Origin: an uncultured Nitrososphaeraceae archaeon
GTDB taxonomy: Archaea; Thermoproteota; Nitrososphaeria; Nitrososphaerales; Nitrososphaeraceae
Length of the DNA: 64,000 nucleotides
Assembly (NCBI GenBank): GCA_963837175.1
Contig: CAWIMJ010000034.1
Location: 64,001-128,000 of the forward strand
Direction: 5' to 3'
Both the position numbers and the translations under genes were made by a program. Below the pieces are notes generated by a model. The model did no database searches. It was not told the DNA's origin and saw only the letters and a program-made list of their open reading frames with translations. Positions 1-59,022 of the stretch are shown in pieces (the stretch's first letter is position 1; each line of letters starts with the position of its first letter).

Positions 1-104
1 TAGATTCCAATACAATTATTGATCCAACAATAGGCATATTTTCCAATAAAAAAATTTACCATTATTTGTCTTGTTATCAGTTATTTTAATTCCATCCATG
101 TAGA

Positions 105-1604
105 GTGGCTATAATAATAATCTTTAACTCTACTTCTTGCTTAACGCCACTGTTGATTGGTAATATAGATCGTTTGGTTGATTCCCAAATGTATAACCTT
201 GTCTTGGACCTTCAGAAATTAATTCGCCAGCCTAGCGTTTCTGCAAAAAATCATGGTTTGTTAGAGTGTGCGTATCTTGTCTTAACCGTAATGCAAAAAG
301 CAGGAATAAAGGCTCAAGTATTGCACCTCGAAAGTTCCAAAAATGCAGCTCCAATTGTTTATGGAGAGGTTAGATCAAGATCAAATCCAAGATCAAAGAC
401 AGTTTTATTTTACAATCATTATGATGTCCAGCCTGTAGAGCCCTATGAACTATGGAAAGGAGATCCATTCGGTGGAAATATCAAAGATAATAAAATTTTT
501 GGCAGGGATCTTCAGATGATAAAGGCGAGCTCATCACTAGAATAAAGGCAGTAGAGTACTTACTTAAAGAAACTGGAGATGTGCCTTGCAATATAAAATT
601 TGTTGTAGAAGGAGAAGAGGAAATCGGGAGTATTCATCTTGAAAAGTATCTTTCACAATTTGCCAAGAAATTTTCATGTGACGCGATTATCTGGGAATCT
701 GGATATATTGATGCAAAAGATCGACCTATTATAGGCCTTGGAACAAAAGGGATCTTATATGTAGAACTGATATCAAGAGGACCCTCTATCGATGTTCATT
801 CAAGTCTAGCAGTTTTAATAGAAAATCCTGCATGGCGTATCATAAAAGCAGTTAATACATTGTGGGATGATTCAAAAGCTCAGATCCTGATAAAAGACTG
901 GTATAAAGAAGTACGAGGATTTACTCCTGAGGAGCTCTCTTATTTTCAGACAGCCACTACCCTTTGATGAAGACGGATTCAAAAATAAATATGGCATAAA
1001 TAGACTCGTCGCAGATGCAAGAGGGACTAAAATCAATTTAGCGTTGATGGGAATGCCAACATGCAATATTTCTGGTATAACTTCTGGCTATACTGGTAAA
1101 GGTCTAAAAACAGTTATCCCTTCTATGGCCAAGGCAAAGATTGATTTTCGGCTTGTTCCAAATATGAGTCATGAAAAACAGTTTGAACTACTAAGAAATC
1201 ATCTTTATGAAAAAGGTTTCCAAGATATTACGGCAGTCTTTATTCATGGAGCATCATCGTCTAGAAGCCCACTGAATCATCCTTTTGTAATACAGATAAA
1301 GGAGTCTGCTATGAATAACTTTGGTGCTATGCCAGTTATTCATATGTCATCGTCTGGTGCAGGTCCCATGCACATATTTGTTAGGACATTTGGAGTTCCC
1401 TGTGTTTCTATTGGTTGCACTTACATATTTTCTAACATTCATTCTCATAATGAATATGCAAGAATGGACTTGTTGAATAGGACTACAAAATGGATCGCAA
1501 ATATAATTAAGAGATTTGCAAATTCTTATAACAAGTCGAAAATTGAATCGAGTGTCTTATCTGATTTGGTATCTGAAGAGTTAGGCATCTGGAAGAACTT
1601 TTAA
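105..1604 (+). pseudogene. M20 family peptidase/deacylase (ArgE/DapE-like), split into three ORFs by frameshifts
   Basis: Motifs YNHYDVQP, GR(G)..DDKGE (across the frameshift near 505), EGEEEIGS, DVHSS, DFRLVP and NIHSHNE lie in ORFs 105-545, 581-967 and 1044-1604. The shifts may be sequencing errors. Confidence 0.85.
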
Positions 1605-14889: not shown

Positions 14890-15414
14890 AGTAGCTGCAG
14901 TTAGTCCCAGGCTTTCAATGCAAAGAATCTCTTAAAGAAAATTCACAGAATTTCCAATAGGACATTTGTTATTATCGATGAAATTCTAACTAGACATCTA
15001 GACATTAACGATGAAGACACATGATTCGAACAGGAGGAAATGGAAAATGCCATCATAATGAGAATTCACCGGATGAGGAGTGAATGATTGATAAGCAATC
15101 TTAGTAATGGTTCTAGTCTAGACGAAATAATACAAGTAAAGCAAGAAGAATATCATCCAAATCTGCACGAAATGCATGATACCATAACCACAGCCTGTTA
15201 TTATCTTTACTAAACAGGATTGTCTTTGGAGGTTCGTTGTAGCTCCATTTTAAGCGCACACGGTTATGACGTACAAAACTTGCATTCATTAAAACCATAA
15301 TGCGAAGCAAATTATACATTCTTTGTTGAATATAGGTCTAATGATTAATCAGATAACTATCTGAATGGTTTGACCTAAAGTGGGTAATTCAATACTTTTT
15401 TATACAATAAGGAT

Positions 15415-17757
15415 TTGCATACACCGTTGGCGCTATTAGATGAAATAAAGAGCATCTGTTCCCGGTTAAGCTCTCATGGATGGAGAGATCTTCTTTTGCA
15501 ACATGATCTAGATATTACTGCAGAGGATCTAAAAAAAGAACTTTTAAATGAACTTCCATCAATCAACCGACAGATAGAGGGATTTGAAGATTTTGCTATA
15601 GAAGGTAAACGAGGCATTGAACCAGGTAATCCTGCTCGTAGCTTACTTTTTCATGCCCTAGCATCTCCAAATGTTATAAAAAAGGCTAACGGACAAGAGC
15701 TTGATGCCTTTCCTACATTGACAGAAATCAAGAAGGTTGAGAATTTTGTATATGCAATACAACCACCATCATTGCAACAATTAAGGAATAAAGCTAAAGA
15801 AATTGTCCACCTAGTTAACGGACAGGGAAGTGGGAATAATTTGGAAGAAGCAACAATGGCAGTTGTTGTATTTTCTTCAGAATACCGGCCTGCCGCAGAA
15901 ACAGTACATCAAAAACATGCTGATATGTGCTATTCAAGATCTGGAGTTGCAAGAGTCGGCACAGATGAACCATTATACGATAATCGCAGGAGAGGCTTTC
16001 TTCCAATTGTAAATAATAAACACAATGCATTTAGAGTTCTACCCGCTCAATATGATGCCTATATTGCAATTCAACTTACTGGTAATAAAGATATATTTGG
16101 ACCATTGCACTATAGATTAAATCGTATTTCAGATGCAGAAAGTAAATTTTGGGTTCCTCTTCATAAGCTTTTCAGTGGAAATGAATGCTTAAAGGATATC
16201 AATTTGAGCGTAGATCTCAGAGCATTCCATAAAAATGAAAAAATAAAACGAATACATTTGGCGTTACAAAAGATCATAAATTATCCAAAAATCAATGACA
16301 CGACACTAAATAATCCACCATATACTTTTTCAGAAGGTATTGCAGAATTTTCTGCTAATGTGGAACATGGAGATGGACTTTTAGTTCCTGTGTCTCATAG
16401 TCCAATGGTTGAACCAGCTAGAGACAATGGAAAGCGACTTACGTTTCTTGTCCCTCCAGAGCGTGATAAGGATTCCATATTTGAATATCTTGACTCAAGT
16501 CTTAAACTGAATAAAGGACTAGGTATTCCTGGTGCTCCGGAATATGTACATGTTAGACACATGGTTGATGACAATGAAAATATTATGAATTTAAATCTCG
16601 AAGATAATATGATGGCTCTAATTATGGCAGGAGGTTATCAAGCTCAACATTACCATGATTTTACTGGTGATGGCTGGATTGAAGCATCAATTCCTGAATT
16701 GATTTCTCAAGATGAAACATCAATACCACCAAACAAATTTAATATGATTTCAGCTTATTCTCTGATAACTGCCCCTGATTTTTTTACTAATGTGGATCAA
16801 GGGGAATTGAGGAGGTGGTATGATAAACTCGATTCAAATTTGCAAGATCCCAAATGGGTAGAGCAACTTGAAACATTATCAGACCAAAGCGACGTTCCTC
16901 CCAATTTAGATTTAAAAAAGTCTAAAGATGGAAATCTTAAGAGGATATTTAACCCTGATGACAAAACTGCTACAGCCATAGTCTCATTACCGTTAAAAAG
17001 AATTGAAAGACAAATACCTGACTCATTATTAAAAACGATGAGACACTCCTATCTACCCGATGCAGCATCTGGCTATTTTGCTCCTGGATGGGATATAGGT
17101 ATTGATGAATCACATCCTAGTAATCCATATCTTGCTTCTTATACTCTTGGAAGTCCTTTTCCTGAAGATTCTAAACTTTGTGCAGCATTATCTGCGTTTT
17201 GGCCTGCTGTTGCACCAGATGCAGGCCGTAGTTTCTGGTGGGAAGTTAGAAAAGGAGTTTTTCCAACTAGGAGCCCTCTAACAGATGAAGAAATTGGATC
17301 GGTTGGAGATCGTGGTTGGGATGGATTTAGTGGTCCCCAATTGATCTCCGATACTGAAACAAGTGAAATTATAGAATATCATGCAAGCGAGTATGTAGAC
17401 TATGTTGAAAGTGCTCTCGAAAATAAATTCTCACTAAATCTCACTATTAATGTGGATAATGATGAATACCAGAAAAGAATAAAGGCAATGGCAAGAGCAT
17501 ACCTAGCTTGTAGAGCCCCAGACGAATCTTCTCAAACTCGTTCTCCCGTTCTATCGTTTCGTAAAGTATCATCAAATGATTTGCAATTAAGAGAAGCTCA
17601 AGAAAGATTTGGAAACCCAATAAATGGAGATATATTTAGAATTGAAATTGTAAGAGGACAACGAGAAATTAAAATTCAAAAGGTAAGGTTGAAGATATCG
17701 AAAAAATTTGTTTGTTTTGTAGGAAATGATAACATAGGTACTGGTAAAAGAAAATAA
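15415..17757 (+). CDS. Divergent LodA/GoxA-like CTQ-dependent oxidase (putative)
   Basis: GVARVG, HDFTGDGWIEA, AYSLITAPDF and PFPEDSKLC...FWPAVAPD parallel the LodA-family motifs in order. Next to a LodB-like flavoprotein. Confidence 0.65.
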   Translation: MHTPLALLDEIKSICSRLSSHGWRDLLLQHDLDITAEDLKKELLNELPSINRQIEGFEDFAIEGKRGIEPGNPARSLLFHALASPNVIKKANGQELDAFPTLTEIKKVENFVYAIQPPSLQQLRNKAKEIVHLVNGQGSGNNLEEATMAVVVFSSEYRPAAETVHQKHADMCYSRSGVARVGTDEPLYDNRRRGFLPIVNNKHNAFRVLPAQYDAYIAIQLTGNKDIFGPLHYRLNRISDAESKFWVPLHKLFSGNECLKDINLSVDLRAFHKNEKIKRIHLALQKIINYPKINDTTLNNPPYTFSEGIAEFSANVEHGDGLLVPVSHSPMVEPARDNGKRLTFLVPPERDKDSIFEYLDSSLKLNKGLGIPGAPEYVHVRHMVDDNENIMNLNLEDNMMALIMAGGYQAQHYHDFTGDGWIEASIPELISQDETSIPPNKFNMISAYSLITAPDFFTNVDQGELRRWYDKLDSNLQDPKWVEQLETLSDQSDVPPNLDLKKSKDGNLKRIFNPDDKTATAIVSLPLKRIERQIPDSLLKTMRHSYLPDAASGYFAPGWDIGIDESHPSNPYLASYTLGSPFPEDSKLCAALSAFWPAVAPDAGRSFWWEVRKGVFPTRSPLTDEEIGSVGDRGWDGFSGPQLISDTETSEIIEYHASEYVDYVESALENKFSLNLTINVDNDEYQKRIKAMARAYLACRAPDESSQTRSPVLSFRKVSSNDLQLREAQERFGNPINGDIFRIEIVRGQREIKIQKVRLKISKKFVCFVGNDNIGTGKRK

Positions 17758-17763
17758 TAAAGA

Positions 17764-18816
17764 ATGGGACAAGATAGTGATAGAGTAAACCCTAGACCGA
17801 AAGTCATCATCATAGGCAGTGGCCCATCTGGTTCTGCTGCTGCCATTTGGGCTGCAAAACTAGGATTTAGAGTTATTCTACTGGAATCATCAATATTTCC
17901 GCGACATAGACCTGGTGAAACATTGCATCCGGGTCTAGAAAGTATATTTAAAATGCTAGAAGTAAATGACGAAATTGATAAAGAAAAATTCTATCGTCAT
18001 AGTGGTATCGCGGTACAATGGAACTCTGAATGTAAACTAGTACCATTTGGTAAAGATAATAATGGATGTTGGCTTGGATATCAGGCATTACGTTCTAAAT
18101 TAGATTATATTCTTCTTAATCATGCTAAAAAATTGGGTGTATCCGTATTACAACCATGCCATGCAGTCAATATAATTTGCAACTCAAATAAAATCATAGG
18201 AGTAATAACATCAGAAGGTAATTTTCAAAGTAATTTTGTTATTGATGCTGGAGGAAGTGCACACTGGCTTGCCAGAAAAATTGATCTTAAAATATCAAAA
18301 TACTCTTCCAATCTTATTGCCTTCTATGGCTATGCAAAAGGCACTTGTGATTTTAACCATAATAATCCACATTTAAAGGCTGTAGATAATGGTTGGATAT
18401 GGACAGCAAAAGTAAATCAAAATCTTTATCAATGGACGAGACTTTTATTTAATGATAATACAATATCTAAAAATTGGTTGCCAAAAGAACTAAATAAGCT
18501 AGAACCTCTGGGTCCTATTCTAGGATCAGATGTAACATGGCGTCTTGTTGATAGACCGTCGGGATTAGGATATTTTATTACTGGTGACGCCGCAAGTGTT
18601 TTGGATCCTGCATCATCCCATGGTGTTCTGAAAGGAATGATGTCAGGAATAATGGCAGTACATACCATAAATAGAATTATCGATGATGGCATTCCAATAA
18701 ATCTTGCTATAAGAAAGTATAATGAATGGTTATCTGAATGGTTTTTTTATGACTATACCAAACTAAAAGAGTTTTACTTAACTCATCCAACACCTCCAAA
18801 ATGGCTAATAAATTGA
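17764..18816 (+). CDS. FAD-dependent oxidoreductase, LodB/GoxB-like (halogenase/monooxygenase fold)
   Basis: IIGSGPSG, PGETLHPG, VIDAGG, GWIW and GDAASVLDPASSHG. Starts 6 bp after the upstream stop. Confidence 0.85.
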   Translation: MGQDSDRVNPRPKVIIIGSGPSGSAAAIWAAKLGFRVILLESSIFPRHRPGETLHPGLESIFKMLEVNDEIDKEKFYRHSGIAVQWNSECKLVPFGKDNNGCWLGYQALRSKLDYILLNHAKKLGVSVLQPCHAVNIICNSNKIIGVITSEGNFQSNFVIDAGGSAHWLARKIDLKISKYSSNLIAFYGYAKGTCDFNHNNPHLKAVDNGWIWTAKVNQNLYQWTRLLFNDNTISKNWLPKELNKLEPLGPILGSDVTWRLVDRPSGLGYFITGDAASVLDPASSHGVLKGMMSGIMAVHTINRIIDDGIPINLAIRKYNEWLSEWFFYDYTKLKEFYLTHPTPPKWLIN

Positions 18817-20373: not shown

Positions 20374-21495
20374 TTGACAGAAAATAAGAATATCGGAAAC
20401 CTTATACCGTTAAGAGGGAACATATCTAAGATTTTAAAAGAAGAAAGAAAGGTATTGAGAGATGCATTTATCAAATTAAATACGAACCAGTTCGTATATC
20501 CTGGAGGTAGAAATGATAAACCATTTATTGGAGGGATAACTTATTGGTTTAAACAAGACGAAATTCATCAGGCCACACATGTGCATCATGGTCCTGCATT
20601 CCTCCCATGGCATAGAGAGTTAATAAATAGATTTGAAATGCATCTAAGAATGGTTAATAGAAATACTTCTCTTCATTATTGGGATTGGAATGAAGATCCA
20701 GAAAACACTATTGACTCACAAGGTAAGCCAATAAATCTTTTTAAAGATGAATTTATGGGTAATTCTATTGGCGAGGTAGGGCAGCCATGGCTAAAAGCAA
20801 AATTCTATGATCCGGATGCAGAACAGTATAGAGCCGACGATCCATTTGATAAAGAACATAGCAATCCGTTTGATCCGCCAAAACATTTAAGGAGACAAAA
20901 ACAAAAAGGAACACTAAAAGAATTTATGGAATCAGATGGTGCTCATTTTTACACAGATGAAGAAATAATTAGTTCTGATACATTTACAGAAATGCGGATA
21001 AAATTAGAAGGTGTTCATGATTATGCTCATGGCTATATTGGTGGACATATAGGTGAACTTCATACCGCATTTCGAGATCCTTTTGTATTCTTAATACATT
21101 CAAATGTAGATAGATTATTTGCAGCTTGGCAACTTGCAAGTGGACATGAATCTAGGTTGGATCCGCAATATGTCTATGGAGACGAGAAGAATTCTATGTC
21201 ACTAGGATCTACTTCACCTCATGTAATTGTTGGACTACAAAGTTTATTATCGCCCTGGGCAGGCGTGGGTTATCCATTTGAAAGAAGACAAATTGAAAAT
21301 GAATTATCACTTAAAGAAGAGCCTGGCGTGAATGATGTAAGGCCATGGGCTTATCCTGACAATTGGCATAGAAATCCAAAATCTCCAGCTGAAAAGCCAA
21401 AGAATTCCTTGGACCAATCGGTGGTTGTACCTGCTACTCGATATAATAGCTATCCATCTGGTTTCAATTATAATTTCAATATTTTTAAGGAATAG
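20374..21495 (+). CDS. Tyrosinase-family type-3 copper protein
   Basis: CuA EIHQATHVHHGPAFLPWHR and YWDW; CuB HDYAHGYIGG...DPFVFLIHSNVDRL. Confidence 0.92.
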   Translation: MTENKNIGNLIPLRGNISKILKEERKVLRDAFIKLNTNQFVYPGGRNDKPFIGGITYWFKQDEIHQATHVHHGPAFLPWHRELINRFEMHLRMVNRNTSLHYWDWNEDPENTIDSQGKPINLFKDEFMGNSIGEVGQPWLKAKFYDPDAEQYRADDPFDKEHSNPFDPPKHLRRQKQKGTLKEFMESDGAHFYTDEEIISSDTFTEMRIKLEGVHDYAHGYIGGHIGELHTAFRDPFVFLIHSNVDRLFAAWQLASGHESRLDPQYVYGDEKNSMSLGSTSPHVIVGLQSLLSPWAGVGYPFERRQIENELSLKEEPGVNDVRPWAYPDNWHRNPKSPAEKPKNSLDQSVVVPATRYNSYPSGFNYNFNIFKE

Positions 21496-21503
21496 AAAAA
21501 AAT

Positions 21504-23714
21504 ATGGCTATCTTACATTTTAGTGGAAAATTCAAATTCCATGTTCCTCTCTACAACAATATTCCTTATCATGAGGAATTAGAGTTCAACTCACAAATAG
21601 AACCAAAAGAAGTACATAAAAATTTTGGAGTTGATCCATTACAGTATTATGAATTTGAATTTTTGGATGTTTACGTATCAAAAATAACTTATGATGATGG
21701 AACCTCTACTGTAAACCCTAAAAATGATCCAATCATTGGTAAGAAAGTGTTATTAAAGGGTCTCTTAGTGGACGTGGCACCTCATTTAGAGATTGGAAGA
21801 TTGTTTGCTGCCGAATTTAGAGTTATAGATTTTCTTATGGGAAAACTAGATGTTGCAGTACAATCAGAACTTGCTAAGAATATTAAAACTGATATATTAG
21901 ACAATATTCAAAACGAATCTGTTTGTTATTCTGCATATTTCGATACTCGCTTATATGAAATATATAGATTAACACATGAGGAATTAACAAAAGATAGTTC
22001 TAAATTCCTCAAAGAAATTGATAATAACATTTCGAATCTAAAAGTACATTTTACTGTTACCAGATTCATAAATAAATCCTCTGTTTTAGATAATGAGGAA
22101 TCTGTAATTAATGAAGGAAATGTTTATGGATATATTAAAGAAGAAACCCTTTCACAGAATAACAGCGGTGTACGGCTCAAGGAACGTCGTCTTATTTTCA
22201 ATTCTAGTTTAAACTGTAATTCCAATGAAAATGATAATAATTTCCCGTTAGATATTTTTAAGGATTTTGATCTTAAAGGAACTTATGAAATACAAGAAGA
22301 AAAAAAGTTAGTTATAGTATCTTATATAAATTTTATTCCCTATATCGATTTAAATTATAATACCTTTCCACAAGTTAGATATTTCATTAAAATATTTTAT
22401 GAAGATCGGGAGCTTCACTGTGGGGAAGAAGATGTAGAGATTAAAACTAATAGGGAAAGTCTTTTTGAATCTGGCGGAACCAAAGTTTTTAAAATTCCAG
22501 GAGATGTGTGCGATTTATCAAAATTATATCTTATCGTGGTATTAAAAAAAGAAAACAATAATGAGTTCATACTAATGATTGAGCCTGATTATGATATTGT
22601 TTTAGACGAAAATTGTCGATACATATATCTAGAATCTAACAAACAAAAGGAGATAGTATCTTTTATATTCCATAAAAATAAGCTAGATAATGGATTAATA
22701 CCAATAGTTTTAGAAAATCCTACATTGGATCAAAAATCATCGAGAGATGAAAAAAGTAAATACCGATCACCCATTGTTGCAAAATGGATGCAGAAAGAGA
22801 AAGAACCAACAGGGAACAAAAAATCGAATGAGATGACAATTAATGCAATAAATGGCGTCGTACGTGCCGTAATAGAGGCCATAAATTTAGAAGATTCTGA
22901 AAAAGTATATGATCCTGTTAATGATATATATTTAGAAGGAGAACTGCCTTGGAATAGGTATTATGGAAATGAAGTTTCGTTAAAAATAGATATTAATGAT
23001 AATTATAAAATGCAGAGAAATATTCCTGTTCGTGTACTTCATAGTGTTAACTTGGAGTCAAATAATAAAGAAGTAAAATCTTTAGAGATTATAAAAAAGC
23101 TTTTCTCATATTATATCCGATACTATCCTTGGCTGCATACTAGCTATACACAAGATCCGAATATGGAAAAATCAAGATATGTATATAAAAGATTTTTAGA
23201 ACTTGATAAATGGGACTACAACCATCATAACTGGGCTAATACTAAGCAAGTCATAGATAATATAGATAAGATTGTAGAACGTCTTTCAAGAAAAGATGAA
23301 GATTGGAGAAAAATGCCTCGATCAAGAGACTTTCCAATTAATGGTGTGGAATTTATAAAGATATGGCGTACTCAAATTCTTGATGAGTTATTACATGGAG
23401 TAAATGATTATATTAAAATCGATGTCCAAGACAATCTAAAAAAACTTGATAAATTAATAGAGAAAAGTGATGATGAGAAAGATAAAGATGTATTATTAGT
23501 GTTAAAAAGATATATCGAAAGCGAGAATTTGGGTGATGAATTTACAGACGTCCAAGACAATCTAAAAAAACTTGATAAATTAATAGAGAAAAGTGATGAT
23601 GAGAAAGATAAAGAATTTATCAAATCTTTAAGATTAAGAATATTAATTAAAGTATCAGAAAGTATACATAATTTAAGGCAAGAAATCCAGACAAGCCACA
23701 TACATTCTGAATAG
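21504..23714 (+). CDS. VioB-like (N-terminal/central heme region) protein, no obvious ferritin-like C-terminal domain
   Basis: N-terminal LHFSGKF...P.YNN and C-terminal YYIRYYPWL...KMPRSRDFP resemble VioB-family motifs. Starts 8 bp after the tyrosinase stop. Confidence 0.5.
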   Translation: MAILHFSGKFKFHVPLYNNIPYHEELEFNSQIEPKEVHKNFGVDPLQYYEFEFLDVYVSKITYDDGTSTVNPKNDPIIGKKVLLKGLLVDVAPHLEIGRLFAAEFRVIDFLMGKLDVAVQSELAKNIKTDILDNIQNESVCYSAYFDTRLYEIYRLTHEELTKDSSKFLKEIDNNISNLKVHFTVTRFINKSSVLDNEESVINEGNVYGYIKEETLSQNNSGVRLKERRLIFNSSLNCNSNENDNNFPLDIFKDFDLKGTYEIQEEKKLVIVSYINFIPYIDLNYNTFPQVRYFIKIFYEDRELHCGEEDVEIKTNRESLFESGGTKVFKIPGDVCDLSKLYLIVVLKKENNNEFILMIEPDYDIVLDENCRYIYLESNKQKEIVSFIFHKNKLDNGLIPIVLENPTLDQKSSRDEKSKYRSPIVAKWMQKEKEPTGNKKSNEMTINAINGVVRAVIEAINLEDSEKVYDPVNDIYLEGELPWNRYYGNEVSLKIDINDNYKMQRNIPVRVLHSVNLESNNKEVKSLEIIKKLFSYYIRYYPWLHTSYTQDPNMEKSRYVYKRFLELDKWDYNHHNWANTKQVIDNIDKIVERLSRKDEDWRKMPRSRDFPINGVEFIKIWRTQILDELLHGVNDYIKIDVQDNLKKLDKLIEKSDDEKDKDVLLVLKRYIESENLGDEFTDVQDNLKKLDKLIEKSDDEKDKEFIKSLRLRILIKVSESIHNLRQEIQTSHIHSE
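23421..23614 (+). repeat. 68-bp direct repeat, two copies, in frame (DVQDNLKKLDKLIEKSDDEKDK)
   Basis: Copies at 23421-23488 and 23547-23614. Confidence 0.9.
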
Positions 23715-29189: not shown

Positions 29190-30716
29190 CTATAGAGAAG
29201 AATATATTTTATAGATTGATCCACCATAAGTAAGAACATATAAACTACCATCATACGGGCTAACTTGTATATCAGTAATTACACCAAATCCTTTTCCAAA
29301 TATTGTTTCATGCATTTCATCTGGAGTATTTGCAATTTTATCTGTAAGCGGACTACCATCACCAAACAATAATCCTGTTCTTTCAGGATTTAATTTAAAA
29401 TTATACAACCAGCCAAGATTAGTATCACCTATAAACATAGTATTTTGGTATTGTTTTCCTAATTTATCGGAGTTGAGAAATTTAAGTGCAGTTACACCAA
29501 GTGTTGCAGTCCAAACAAACTCTGGATCGCTATATTGGCTATTTGCACCAAAATTAACTAAATCAGTAGCAGGATTTATTGTTGTGCTGTTTGTTGCTGT
29601 TGCTGTTGCTGTTGCTGTTGTCTGTGATGAAGAATCATCCTCTGAATCATCCTCTGAAACTTCTGTAATTACATCTTTTACAAAACCTTCAATCTTTGAA
29701 TATCCACTATTAAATCCTGGTTCAACTAGGTTAATTTCATCTGCAAATTCATGACCATTCTCTGTATCCCATAATTTTCCAGTAATAGGATCAAAGTCCA
29801 TTCCAAAAGTATTACGTATACCATATGCATAATAGTAAGGACTCATTGGTTGTATGGATCCTAATGGAGGATTTAGTTGTACTTGACCATCCTGTGTCAC
29901 TCTAAGTATACCACTAGTTCCATCAAGTGGTGCTCCATCAAGAACATTCTGAGCTTGACCTCTATGACCTATAACATCACCAATACCAACGTATACATAA
30001 TTATCAGTAGGGCCGATCATTACCTTACCAGCATTATGCGCTCTTTCAGCATTTTCTCTATCTGGTGGTGGATGCGCTGGAAGATCCAAAAGTAATTTTG
30101 GATTTACTAACTGATTGTCTACTAATTCATATCTGTAAAGACGATTGCCTAATACATTTTCTTCTGAATCAACATCATCACCATCTGTTGCGCTGCTAGA
30201 TTCCGTATAATATAAGAAAACATAAGTAGTGCCATTTTCATGTTGTGATACAGCAATTCCTAGCATTCCTCTCTCAGCTAGATTAGCAACACTTACATCA
30301 AGAAGTGCTTCCGGATTTAATTGACCATTTATGATTCTCTTTACCATACCTGTATTTTTTTCAGTTACTAAAATGTCATTTGGACCTACAAATGCCATAC
30401 TGGTAGGATGGTCAAGTCCAGTAAAGATTTGTTCTAATTTTAGACTAGGATCATTAAGTGTAGGTCCTCCCGGGAGAGGTTTAGACTTTGTATTATGAAT
30501 TGTAGTAGGGATATCATCTGTAGAACTAGAACTAGTGCTAGAAGAAGAATCAGAAGAGCTAGTGCTAGAAGAAGAATCAGAAGAGCTAGTGCTAGAAGAA
30601 GAATCAGAAGAGCTAGAAGCTTGTGCTAGATTTATTATTGGTAGGAAGCTTAGTATTAAAATTAAAACTAAAAGTAATAGAAAAGATATAATGATGTGAC
30701 CTTTTGTATACCTCAA
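29190..30716 (-). CDS. PQQ-dependent soluble sugar dehydrogenase (GSDH family), secreted, with Ser-rich linker
   Basis: ERGMLGIAV, HNAG, YGIRNTFGMDFDP, DEINLV..G.N.G and ITDIQVSP.DG.LYV. Confidence 0.9.
   Translation of the reverse strand: MRYTKGHIIISFLLLLVLILILSFLPIINLAQASSSSDSSSSTSSSDSSSSTSSSDSSSSTSSSSTDDIPTTIHNTKSKPLPGGPTLNDPSLKLEQIFTGLDHPTSMAFVGPNDILVTEKNTGMVKRIINGQLNPEALLDVSVANLAERGMLGIAVSQHENGTTYVFLYYTESSSATDGDDVDSEENVLGNRLYRYELVDNQLVNPKLLLDLPAHPPPDRENAERAHNAGKVMIGPTDNYVYVGIGDVIGHRGQAQNVLDGAPLDGTSGILRVTQDGQVQLNPPLGSIQPMSPYYYAYGIRNTFGMDFDPITGKLWDTENGHEFADEINLVEPGFNSGYSKIEGFVKDVITEVSEDDSEDDSSSQTTATATATATNSTTINPATDLVNFGANSQYSDPEFVWTATLGVTALKFLNSDKLGKQYQNTMFIGDTNLGWLYNFKLNPERTGLLFGDGSPLTDKIANTPDEMHETIFGKGFGVITDIQVSPYDGSLYVLTYGGSIYKIYSSL
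30532..30616. repeat. 27-bp tandem repeat, about 3 copies (encodes SSSDSSSST)
   Basis: Unit CTAGAAGAAGAATCAGAAGAGCTAGTG. Confidence 0.9.
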
Positions 30717-33433: not shown

Positions 33434-35362
33434 TTGTCTTTACAAGTAACAAAAATCAAAGGAATACCAATTCGCTTACATTTTACTTTAATTATAGGCT
33501 TTTTTCTAATAGCTTGGACACTTGCCGCAAGATTAATGCCTGAAATCTATCCTAGCCTAACTAGAGAAGAATATTGGATTATAGGTATTTTGGGTGCTGG
33601 TATCTTGTTTATTTCTGTACTTTTACATGAATTAGCTCATTCAATAGTGGCATTAAAGTATGGACTTAAAGTACACCAGATAATACTTTTTATTTTTGGA
33701 GGAGTATCTGATATTGAAGAACAAGGAGAATCTTCAAAGGATTTTCGCAAAGAATTTAAAACTGCTGTTGTAGGTCCTATAACAAGCTTTGTTATTGCAG
33801 GAATATTGGCATTAGCATGGTGGATATTATTAATATTATCATCATCAGCTCAAACTGGATTCACTACTACTGATGCAATAAAAAGTATTGCTGAAGCTGT
33901 ACTTAGATATGGTGCATTAACAAATACACTTCTTGGAGGGTTTAACCTTATACCAGCATTTCCATTAGATGGTGGTAGAATATTACGTTCTGCTCTAGTG
34001 AGGTGGAAAAGAGACTATGATCAATCTACAAAAATAGCAGTAAGAATTGGAATAGCCATATCTTATGGGTTTATAGCATTTGGTTTCATTACAATGTTTT
34101 CAGTCTCATTTGTTAGTGGAATGTGGATAATGTTTATAGGTTGGTTCTTAAATAGTGGTGCACAATCCTATTTATCGCAACATGAACTATCCACTACATT
34201 ATCTGGGGTACGTTTAAGAGATATCATGAATACAAGATTTATTTCGGTAAAGCCAGATATAACAGTAAATGATCTATTAAATAATTATTTTAATGCATAT
34301 AGAAAAAGTGAATTTCCAGTAGTAGATGAGAAACATGGGAGTAATTTGCTTGGTGCAGTCACAGCTAAACAAGCCATAAATGTAGTACCAGAACACGATA
34401 GAGATAGGATAAGAGTAGAGGAAATAATGATTCCTAAAAGCAAGCTTATTGTTATGAAATCCAACAGAACAGCTGACGAAGCTTTAAGAAGAGTTTTTAG
34501 AGAAAATAAGAGTAGAGTATTTGTTTATGATGATGAGGAGGAGGAAGACCATATAGAGAAAAGAGGAGGAGGACTAATAGGAGAAAAAGAAGAAGAAAAA
34601 CTAGAGGTAAAAGAACAAGAAAGACAAAGACAAAAGCTAGTCGGATTAATCAGCAAAACAGACTTACTTAATATTGTAAGAGAAAGAGAAGAATACGAGA
34701 AAGAAGTTAAGAGAGTTAGCAGTAGTAATATTGAAGAAAGGAGAACTTCTTTTTCTTCCTCTTTCTTATTATCTACCCATAAGTTTAACATAGTATCAAG
34801 ACAGCGATTGCTATTTTTAGTATTTGGTATGATTCTGTTTATAATTGCTTATTCTGTTGGTGCCATACTAGTAAAGATAAATAGCACTGAAGCAGAAATC
34901 ATGAAAAAACATTTTCAAGAGCAAATTAAAGGAATTAATAAGTACAAGATTTTTGTAAATAATTTTAGAGTCACATTAGGAATGTTTATTCCCGGATTTG
35001 GTATTGCATTAGGTATATTTTCTGCTTTTTCAACTGGATTGGTATTTAATGCTATATCACATACTTCCCCCATTATACCCCATATTTCTCCACTAATAGT
35101 TTTTCTAACACCATTTGGAATTTTAGAAATTATTGCATATGGTATTGCAATATCAAGAAGTGGCATAATATCTTATCAATTAATTAAAGATACCAATAAA
35201 AGAAAATCATGGCAAAAATATGTTATTCCCACCATTATTGAGATTGTAGTAGTATTGGTTATATTATTAATTGGAGCCATAATAGAATGGCAAATGGCAC
35301 AGCAATTTGGAATACTTGGAAAGTATAGTAGTAGAAGTAATATAGATATTAGAGGGCTTTAA
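33434..35362 (+). CDS. Site-2 protease (M50) plus CBS pair, fused to a SpoIIM-like membrane domain
   Basis: HELAH and FNLIPAFPLDGGR, then CBS repeats, then IFVNNF...PFGILE...IGAIIE. Confidence 0.85.
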   Translation: MSLQVTKIKGIPIRLHFTLIIGFFLIAWTLAARLMPEIYPSLTREEYWIIGILGAGILFISVLLHELAHSIVALKYGLKVHQIILFIFGGVSDIEEQGESSKDFRKEFKTAVVGPITSFVIAGILALAWWILLILSSSAQTGFTTTDAIKSIAEAVLRYGALTNTLLGGFNLIPAFPLDGGRILRSALVRWKRDYDQSTKIAVRIGIAISYGFIAFGFITMFSVSFVSGMWIMFIGWFLNSGAQSYLSQHELSTTLSGVRLRDIMNTRFISVKPDITVNDLLNNYFNAYRKSEFPVVDEKHGSNLLGAVTAKQAINVVPEHDRDRIRVEEIMIPKSKLIVMKSNRTADEALRRVFRENKSRVFVYDDEEEEDHIEKRGGGLIGEKEEEKLEVKEQERQRQKLVGLISKTDLLNIVREREEYEKEVKRVSSSNIEERRTSFSSSFLLSTHKFNIVSRQRLLFLVFGMILFIIAYSVGAILVKINSTEAEIMKKHFQEQIKGINKYKIFVNNFRVTLGMFIPGFGIALGIFSAFSTGLVFNAISHTSPIIPHISPLIVFLTPFGILEIIAYGIAISRSGIISYQLIKDTNKRKSWQKYVIPTIIEIVVVLVILLIGAIIEWQMAQQFGILGKYSSRSNIDIRGL

Positions 35363-57481: not shown

Positions 57482-59022
57482 ATGATGAACCATAATAATG
57501 CAAGGTTCAACTTAGGATATGGTGTAATAACATTAGCGTTATTTGGACTAATACTATTATCAGTAATACCAATAATGTTTGGTAGTTCTTCTACTAAGAT
57601 TGTACAACCAGCACTGGGGCAAGGAGAAGATCCGTTCCCTGTATTTAGTAACGAGACATTAACTCCAGCTCAGCGCACCGCTCGCGAACAGCTTTTGAAA
57701 CAGGAAGGCTTCTCAGTCAATGTGATGGCGAGAAACCTCAGTGCGCCTTTCAATATTCTTTATGGTCCTGACGACACTCTCTGGATCACGGAGCGCACAG
57801 GAAAGAACATTACACGAATAGATCCGATCAATGGCACAAAGCTCAGCGAGCACACCTGTCCCCAAGGTTCACCAGTCCGCAGCTCAGGACGGCCTTTTAG
57901 GAATGACGTTTGACCCCAACTTCAATAACACGCGCCATATTTACGTTGCTTATACGTATGACGCGGCCCCCGGTGAGGAACTCGATCGCCGCACTAAAAT
58001 TACTCGATTCACGTACAGACCCGGCTACTAACACCATTAGCGAGCCCATGGACCTCATCAGCGGACTCTCGGGCAGCAGCGATCATAACTCTGGCCGCAT
58101 GACATTTGGCCCTGATGACAAGCTATACTATACTATAGGTGATCAGGGCAAAAACCAGCTCGCTTTGTTCTGTTTGAATGACCGGGCCGAGCATCTCCCA
58201 ACTGCGGAACAAGTTGCTGCCAAGAATTGGACCGAATATGAAGGTAAAGTACTCCGTATGAATCCGGATGGCTCCATCCCCGACGACAATCCAGAGATCA
58301 ACGGTGTCAAAAGCCACATCTATACATATGGTCACCGCAACGCGCAGGGAATAACTGTAGGTCTTAATGGAGATCTCTACGTAGCTGAGCATGGAGACAA
58401 TTCCGATGACGAAATTAATCGTCTCCAAGCGGGTGGAAACTATGGCTGGCCATACGTCGCAGGCTACAACGACAATAAAGCATATCAGTTCTATAACTGG
58501 TCTGCCGCAGAAAACTGTAAAGACCTGACGTATAATGATATTGCACCTGCACCTCCGGGTGTGCCTGTAAGAAATGAAAGTGAATTCAATGCATCAAACT
58601 TCGTACCTCCGCTCCACACGTTCTATACTGTCGAGAGTGAATATAACTTTACAAATCAAGCCAGGACATGTGGCGAGAGGGCCTCTGTCTGCTATCCAAC
58701 CGTCGCTCCTTCGAGTTTGCGTCTGTATACATCAAATGTTATTCCAGGCTGGGAGAACAACTTACTAATGACAACCCTGAAGGCAGGTAGGATCTTCCAA
58801 ATAGCGCTAAACGAGAATGGCACGGCACTTGCACACGAGCCCGTGGAACTTTTCCGCTCAGAGAACCGCTACCGTGACATCGCTTTTGGTCCGGACGGCC
58901 GTACTCTTTACGTGATTACTGACCCGATGGGTGTTGTGCAAGCCATGAAGGAAGACCCAATTACCCCGACCACTGCCCTGTGGAGTCCTGGCTCGCTGCT
59001 TGTGTTCAGGTATGAACGATAG
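57482..59022 (+). pseudogene. Quinoprotein glucose dehydrogenase (sGDH/GSDH), two frameshifts (~57848, ~58018)
   Basis: QDGLLGM, HNSGRM.FGPD, YGHRNAQG, DDEINRL..GGNYGWP and NRYRD. GC-richer than its flanks. Confidence 0.88.

Follow-up and report, generated by a model that had tools for sequence, protein, structure and literature searches.

Known cysteine tryptophylquinone enzymes and the A–B locus

According to a 2025 review, only three types of enzyme, QHNDH, LodA, and GoxA, are known to contain cysteine tryptophylquinone (CTQ) (PMC11951088). LodB and GoxB, the flavoproteins that accompany LodA and GoxA, are described in another report as acting on 7-hydroxy-Trp following an autocatalytic first hydroxylation; in LodA this first Trp hydroxylation is Cu-dependent, and a conserved Asp participates in it (PMC7876137). 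The subject of the present analysis is a pair of adjacent open reading frames (ORFs), ORF A and ORF B, located in a 64,000-nt stretch of DNA (positions 64,001–128,000, forward strand, of contig CAWIMJ010000034.1, assembly GCA_963837175.1; hereafter the window) from an uncultured archaeon of the family Nitrososphaeraceae. The ORF A family is read here as a distant sister of LodA/GoxA whose members would carry CTQ made with the help of the LodB-like ORF B product; the probability of this reading is put at roughly 60%.

The results obtained here that carry this reading are a match in fold, an Asp, a Cys, and a Trp of ORF A that are invariant and in register, the homology of ORF B to LodB together with the absence from it of the halogenase residues, and the co-occurrence of the two genes; the cofactor itself, the sequence of steps in its biogenesis, the reaction catalysed, and the role in physiology we infer. 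An initial annotation, made from the letters of the window alone, had presented the pair as a divergent LodA/GoxA-LodB-like operon in an apparent ammonia-oxidising archaeon. Both frames exist, and a string check located all the motifs quoted for them at the residue numbers given.

A conserved two-gene module

Relatives of ORF A numbered 1058 among 8000 candidates scored, all of them annotated as 'hypothetical' and without Pfam domains. Among 1.84 billion proteins the family comprises 743 representatives at 50% identity, 447 of them at E<=1e-30; 113 profile matches have E-values between 1e-3 and 1e-10, and the best 150 listed are all clear family members. In the ESM Atlas, ORF A matched nothing beyond unnamed clusters of its own family, and no paper describing the family was found in the literature searched, which did not extend to the individual entries for the 168 lodA-like genes of one survey (PMC4417212). 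In species-representative genomes, 264 of the 276 matched stretches encode ORF A relatives. The best 80 loci belong to Cyanobacteriota, Bacillota, Actinomycetota, Acidobacteriota, Myxococcota, Planctomycetota, Armatimonadota, and Pseudomonadota, with four in Nitrososphaerota, and the window protein is 41–57% identical to its relatives across these phyla. Within Bacillota the family reaches into the Bacillus cereus group. The ORF A family is large and so far unnamed, and the module is widespread in bacteria.

In 75 of the 80 loci ORF B is the next gene downstream of ORF A and has the same orientation. Three of the misses are contig ends, and the remaining two genomes (L013 and L074) have an ORF B orthologue elsewhere (501 and 507 bits), so that A and B co-occur in 77/77 evaluable genomes. 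No third neighbour of the pair recurs in the 80 loci. A–B is a real, conserved two-gene module, and the pairing proposed in the initial annotation holds in the homologues.

Predicted fold of ORF A

The AlphaFold2 model of the whole ORF A product (pTM 0.85, mean pLDDT 78.9) and a second, domain-only model were compared by Foldseek with 350,542 chains, LodA/GoxA having been named as the candidate family before the structure searches. For both models the top six chains were LodA, and for the whole-protein model GoxA made up most of what followed (17 of 20 rows listed). The model is taken to share the LodA/GoxA fold, the predicted domains at residues 1–147 and ~690–780 being additions to it; a LodA/GoxA-like fold is supported, if with poor scores. 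The extra N-terminal region noticed at the outset is present, its length being ~147 aa and not ~170 aa, and it is accompanied by an extra C-terminal domain of ~90 aa. A complex prediction for residues 148–690 of A with B returned a score of 0.00, 'no answer', which speaks neither for nor against binding.

The candidate cofactor site

The DDxxDG, PPDF, and F-x-PGIE blocks of the LodA family have collinear invariant counterparts in the ORF A family (Table 1). D415, D419, and G420 of ORF A align with LodA D219, D223, and G224, the invariant Y408 is offset by one position relative to LodA Tyr211, and A556 replaces LodA Cys448, the residue preceding PGIE. The most conserved block of the family is LGSPFPED-x-KLCAALS-x-FWP-x-V-x-PD, which in ORF A gives the arrangement D585-x3-C589-x6-W596-P597; these four residues are invariant in 28/28 and 65/65 aligned homologues, so the conservation expected of Cys589 and Trp596 is found.

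The LodA chain in the PDB has PWQAD512FFNC516 and Y579-W580-W581-P582, and PlGoxA has PWQSD678AASC682. Since the LodA chain reads Y579-W580-W581-P582, the CTQ Trp is the W that precedes the Pro of the WWP motif. W635 of ORF A, within a WDG motif, had also been considered as the CTQ Trp and was rejected because W581 is the Trp of the LodA WWP motif. The register D585/C589/W596 = LodA D512/C516/W581 was returned by hhalign, at a score no better than that of shuffled controls, and the same register appears in HMMER alignments; both thus align the D-x3-C...W-P site proposed initially with that of LodA, each alignment taken by itself being insignificant.

The LodA motifs that the initial annotation had quoted for comparison are genuine: a short LodA-like protein of Scytonema HK-05 (L085) has GIARVGNS, DDVSDGPVTA, AWVIVGPTDF, and PWQADFSAC-GEN-WWPSQRPN. 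The same protein corrects the view that a very short Cys-Trp spacing is distinctive of ORF A. LodA-like proteins of ~490 aa have C-x4-W (C403 and W408, the site reading C403-x3-W-W408-P), and the spacing in LodA is longer because of an insert of ~60 residues.

The flavoprotein partner

Against curated models ORF B scores 107.6 bits for CmlS, 93.6 for QhpG, 85.3 for LodB, and 64.9 for GoxB. The QhpG and LodB models match 33/33 members of the B family with the best E-values (7.8e-39 and 6.1e-35); for GoxB the best E-value is 8.2e-29. For comparison, the genuine LodB encoded beside the Scytonema lodA-like gene reaches 292 bits for LodB, 267 for GoxB, 188 for QhpG, 115 for CmlS, and 89 for GG-reductase; the two proteins match the same five curated models. 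In Scytonema HK-05 a TnpB-family gene (L090:6253-7464, minus strand) stands between this lodA-like gene and its lodB.

Aligned with the genuine LodB by hhalign, the B profile gives a probability of 99.8% and E 8.7e-28 over 304 columns at 27% identity. ORF B is a full-length homologue of a genuine LodB, and the LodB-like partner that had been proposed from two motifs is supported. His79, conserved at 90% or more in the B family, occupies the position of the Lys that is catalytic in halogenases and is present in 8zop, CndH, and CmlS, and B reads W211-x-W213-x-A215-[KR] instead of the halogenase WxWxIP. The genuine Scytonema LodB likewise has neither the Lys nor WxWxIP.

Results weighing against the CTQ reading

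A number of results weigh against the CTQ reading, most of them concerning the sequence of ORF A. Scans of ORF A against Pfam and NCBIfam at E<=1 returned no family. Searches of the PDB at E<=10, with ORF A itself (phmmer) and with the hidden Markov model (HMM) of 28 family sequences, recovered neither LodA nor GoxA. The LodA models PF17990 (LodA_N) and PF18417 (LodA_C) match 0/28 family members at E<=10, and NF038172 and NF038173 gave no ORF A match in the family scans; a Pfam scan of the 28 members at E<=10 returned four chance-level matches, among them QH-AmDH_gamma with E 0.15 in 1/28. Compared by hhalign with a LodA-like profile of 24 sequences, seeded with the genuine LodA-family protein of Scytonema HK-05, the ORF A profile gave a probability of 0.8, P 0.07, and a score of 24.5, which 33 of the 60 block-shuffled templates also attained (their median was 24.7, and the reversed template gave 17.2); neither trimming ORF A to residues 148–690 nor the global mode did better. 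When the genome's six-frame ORFs, 12,223 in all, were searched with HMMs of four LodA blocks, ORF A was in no top five. The sequence statistics give no support for homology between ORF A and LodA/GoxA.

On the same side stand the Foldseek values, with E 2e-3 at best and TM-scores of 0.14–0.16, and the cofactor block in HMMER, where the register is given by the six best of the 61 domains that include the LodA block (13/61 in all) at scores as low as +2.2 to -2.2 bits. Both structure models have pLDDT <50 in the cofactor segment, a confidence not raised in the deeper domain-only model and too low for its geometry to be checked; the equivalence of the site is argued from register and invariance. 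ORF B, too, stays far below the cut-offs of the LodB, GoxB, and QhpG models (400, 400, and 240 bits, the first two being NF038171 and NF038174).

A weak two-way HMM signal between the families speaks for the reading. A LodA-like HMM run against 120 ORF A family members gave best domains of at most 5.8 bits, with 26/120 at or above 0 bits vs 1/120 shuffled sequences, and of 116 best domains 89 paired LodA DDxxDG...PPDF with DFTGDG...APDF. The reverse search returned the same segment pairing at up to 6.4 bits, vs -0.9 for reversed sequences. Of the resemblance to LodA motifs on which the initial annotation was built, the strings stand, while statistically they are not detectable as sequence similarity. 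Nor can ORF A be called a LodA subfamily, as had been suggested: with 0 matches to PF17990, PF18417, NF038172, and NF038173, it would at best be a distant sister family. A and B lie outside the LodA/GoxA and LodB/GoxB families as currently defined.

Proposed maturation and alternative explanations

By analogy with LodA/GoxA, Trp596 would be hydroxylated first, Asp585 assisting; B would then add the second oxygen and close the Cys589-Trp596 thioether, giving CTQ. A and B would be translated from one transcript, their frames overlapping or abutting. Mature A would oxidise a primary amine group, of an amino acid, a peptide, or another amine, to a carbonyl and NH3, and H2O2 would also be released if O2 were the acceptor. 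If this is true, the module represents a large new branch of a small CTQ class, and the range, architectures, and maturases of tryptophylquinone enzymes widen considerably; an oxidase that releases NH3 and H2O2 would, in an ammonia-oxidising archaeon with a Mn catalase, also bear on organic-nitrogen use and soil competition. That the module serves to free ammonia or acts in H2O2 antagonism, as the initial annotation had offered, is speculation.

The alternative that survives best, though it is considered unlikely, is that A shares the LodA/GoxA fold by descent and makes no CTQ, its Cys, Trp, and Asp serving other chemistry (a metal site, a nucleophilic Cys, or a different cross-link between Cys and Trp) and B modifying A in another way or acting on a substrate shared with it. 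The fold match is silent on the cofactor, and the low scores of B against the LodB, GoxB, and QhpG cut-offs, the extra N- and C-terminal domains, Ala556 for LodA Cys448, and the absence of the LodA 517–578 insert would all suit this explanation. What speaks for CTQ instead is that D-x3-C...W-P comprises the exact residues that make or flank the cofactor in LodA/GoxA, invariant in 65/65 homologues, and that CTQ biogenesis is characterised by just such an obligate flavoprotein, of the LodB clade and without the halogenase residues.

A bolder form of the CTQ reading would make the A family a third, independent tryptophylquinone lineage, extracellular and acting on amines of peptides or cell-wall material, which in soil Nitrososphaeraceae, together with a pair of genes that includes a tyrosinase, would serve oxidative antagonism or cross-linking or obtain NH3 from organic amines; taken jointly, these claims are doubtful, and somewhat more so than a shared fold without CTQ. 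Next, the likeness to LodA/GoxA could be fortuitous, a beta-sandwich held in common plus chance motif identities, with A an unrelated enzyme or structural protein beside a flavoprotein. The shuffled controls and the Foldseek values sit easily with such a coincidence, and the collinear invariant blocks and the LodB homology of B sit with it poorly; it is held to be improbable. Finally, that B is a flavin-dependent halogenase and A its protein substrate, carrier, or pathway partner is very improbable indeed: in the PDB the B profile matches halogenases best (8zop_A 192 bits, CndH 146, CmlS 144, vs QhpG 59.6) and Pfam Trp_halogenase matches ORF B at 5.8e-15, but the nearly invariant His79 in place of Lys and WxWxA[KR] in place of WxWxIP, with the genuine LodB free of both halogenase features too, argue against it, and QhpG and a GoxB model are reported to be likewise structurally most similar to the halogenase CmlS (PMC7876137).

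Gene ends and the assembly frameshift

As assembled, ORF A begins at a TTG, and its listed stop is 6 bp from the start of ORF B. The TTG at 15427, four codons downstream of the listed start, encodes MALLDEIK. Because this matches the family N-terminal consensus M-x-L-I-D-E-V-K, and because a TATA-like box lies upstream (Table 1), 15427 is the probable true start, and the mRNA, inferred to begin there, is likely to be leaderless.

At the other end, ORF A as assembled terminates in IGTGKRK before its stop, while the +1 frame from 17738 encodes the conserved C-terminus that P0002 and P0003, its closest relatives, have. The base at 17737 is missing in 3/3 bridging Logan contigs from soil metagenomes of three studies, which otherwise show no difference, so the frameshift is private to this assembly; a contig of a fourth soil run stops at 17737, and its loose end fits a single G. 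The G is either an error or a private mutation, and the natural ORF A is intact and overlaps ORF B by 25 nt. The A and B frames overlap by 4–29 nt in L001, L056, and L079 as well. For the A–B stretch 20 runs are listed, which come from 11 soil or rhizosphere studies; the RNA runs X17–X20 contain only 0.05–0.06 of its sampled words.

Table 1. Features of the A–B locus and its surroundings (positions in the window)
Feature	Residues	Position	Strand	Remark
TATA-like TTTTTTATA		15396-15404	+	~26 nt 5' of TTG 15427
ORF A	1-780	15415-17757	+	780 aa as assembled, TTG start; putative quinoprotein precursor
ORF A, extra helical domain	1-147			predicted
ORF A, LodA/GoxA-like region	148-689			predicted
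ORF A, extra beta-rich domain	~690-780			predicted
GVARVG	177-182	15943-15960	+	likened to LodA GIARVGN; possible resemblance only, paired by no aligner
Y408 and HDFTGDGWIEA	408; 414-424	16636-16686	+	Y408 invariant
AYSLITAPDF	447-456	16753-16782	+	aligns with LodA-family AWVxVxPPDF block
FAPGWD	555-560	17077-17094	+	paired by hhalign with LodA-family F-x-PGIE block
LGSPFPEDSKLCAALSAFWPAVAPD	578-602	17146-17220	+	proposed cofactor site; contains PFPEDSKLC-x5-FWPAVAPD
D585	585	17167-17169	+	family-invariant
C589	589	17179-17181	+	family-invariant
W596	596	17200-17202	+	family-invariant
Extra G		17737	+	shifts ORF A frame 7 codons ahead of listed stop
+1-frame tail VLVKENNKEWDKIVIE, then stop		17738-17788	+	conserved family C-terminus; 25 nt overlap with ORF B start
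ORF B	1-350	17764-18816	+	350 aa; FAD-dependent monooxygenase, LodB/GoxB/QhpG/halogenase-like clade (predicted)
GSGPSG		17815-17832	+	in ORF B
PGETLHPG	50-57			in ORF B
R78-H79	78-79	17995-18000	+	in ORF B
GWIWTAK		18391-18411	+	in ORF B
GDAASVLDPASSHG	274-287			in ORF B
Tyrosinase		20374-21495	+	PF00264, 5.3e-26
736-aa ORF		21504-23714	+	no known family; follows tyrosinase; 34% identity to L001 counterpart (624 aa)

Neighbouring genes

Downstream of ORF B the window encodes a tyrosinase followed by a large ORF. This pair is linked to A–B only in the window and in a Nitrososphaeraceae metagenome-assembled genome (MAG), L001 (L001:2198-5193), where the A–B and tyrosinase pairs are on the same strand in an order swapped relative to the window; at the 78 other loci it is not linked to A–B. 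The tyrosinase is possibly an accessory of the A–B module, and its candidacy as a general partner of A–B was dropped, the linkage being confined to these two loci. Tyrosinases occur in group ID lod operons, according to the lodA survey (PMC4417212).

Elsewhere in the window, no rRNA, tRNA, or Rfam family was found. Two ORFs encode glucose/sorbosone dehydrogenases (GSDH, PF07995), at 29190-30716 (minus strand) and 57910-59022 (plus strand), the latter coinciding with the GC peak of the window (0.42 at 58–60 kb), and a 642-aa ORF at 33434-35362 combines Peptidase_M50, CBS, and SpoIIM domains.

Host and distribution in archaea

The source genome comprises 3.81 Mb in 58 contigs, at a completeness of 91%. 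Its archaeal AmoA (393 bits) marks the host as an ammonia-oxidising archaeon, as the initial annotation had supposed. The closest named relatives of ORF A are Nitrososphaeraceae MAGs. Of 201 genomes sampled from the order, two carry the A–B module, one of them being the source genome; the module is therefore a rare accessory and not a general trait of ammonia-oxidising archaea or part of their core physiology. Canonical LodA_N was found in two other genomes of the 201, in open frames of 606 aa (L091, G008:C6; 208 bits) and 706 aa (L092, G165:C1; 201 bits), and was not found in the source genome. The 2015 survey reports no lodA-like gene in 602 archaeal genomes (PMC4417212), and the initial annotation knew of no archaeal LodA system; at the genome level that view is outdated.

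In a FastTree phylogeny with SH-like support, built without fragments from 89 rows of 600 aa or more, the window protein shares a 12-row clade (support 100) with metagenome proteins that bear no label and with L001. Next to this clade stand L056, L079, and a Pseudomonas MAG on a long branch, with their branching not resolved, and the tree resolves neither a single origin of the four archaeal copies, nor a donor, nor the number of transfers.

Some family members carry additional N-terminal domains: Peptidase_S8 on P0288 and P0323, and PG_binding_1 on P0248 and on a 987-aa protein of Nitrososphaera (L079:5497-8457; 25.5 bits), an organism without peptidoglycan. A Mn catalase (L096, G000:C52:33394-34224; 227 bits) is encoded in the source genome, where the search for a haem catalase, at 91% completeness, turned up none. 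Together, the N-terminal fusions and the Mn catalase would allow an extracellular, H2O2-producing role without showing it.

Comparison with known systems

The halogenases of the CmlS/CndH type are the highest-scoring solved relatives of B, along its full length; B differs from them in having His for their shared Lys, in not keeping WxWxIP, and in being shorter (350 aa). QhpG, the Trp dihydroxylase of QHNDH, is together with LodB the best curated model for the B family, although B itself scores 93.6 bits vs a cut-off of 240. It is described as a flavoprotein that forms CTQ and whose fold resembles that of halogenases (PMC7876137). The QHNDH system is otherwise unlike A–B: the qhp context is absent in the 80 loci, and A is a large single chain, whereas QHNDH has a small cross-linked gamma subunit.

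The short LodA/GoxA-family proteins of cyanobacteria, myxobacteria, and rhizobia (~490 aa; e.g., L085:1189-2643) have Ala before PGIE, as A has before PGWD, and a spacing of C-x4-W vs C-x6-W in A. They coexist with the A family in the Scytonema HK-05 genome (L085 and L002). They match PF17990, PF18417, and the GoxA/LodA models (204–236 bits), and their LodB reaches 292 bits, while ORFs A and B are far from both.

With LodA (L-lysine epsilon-oxidase) and GoxA (glycine oxidase) the differences of A are the lack of a family-model match, the extra 147-aa helical N-terminal and ~90-aa C-terminal domains, and, relative to LodA, Ala for Cys448 and no counterpart of the 517–578 insert; B, at 65–85 bits vs cut-offs of 400, differs correspondingly from LodB/GoxB. 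Nevertheless, LodA/GoxA are the best structural match, over ~540 residues of A, and they share with it a D-x3-C...[aromatic]-W-P site in what appears to be the same register, the collinear DDxxDG, PPDF, and F-x-PG-x-[ED] blocks, and a dedicated flavoprotein gene, which in the A family stands directly downstream and is homologous to LodB.

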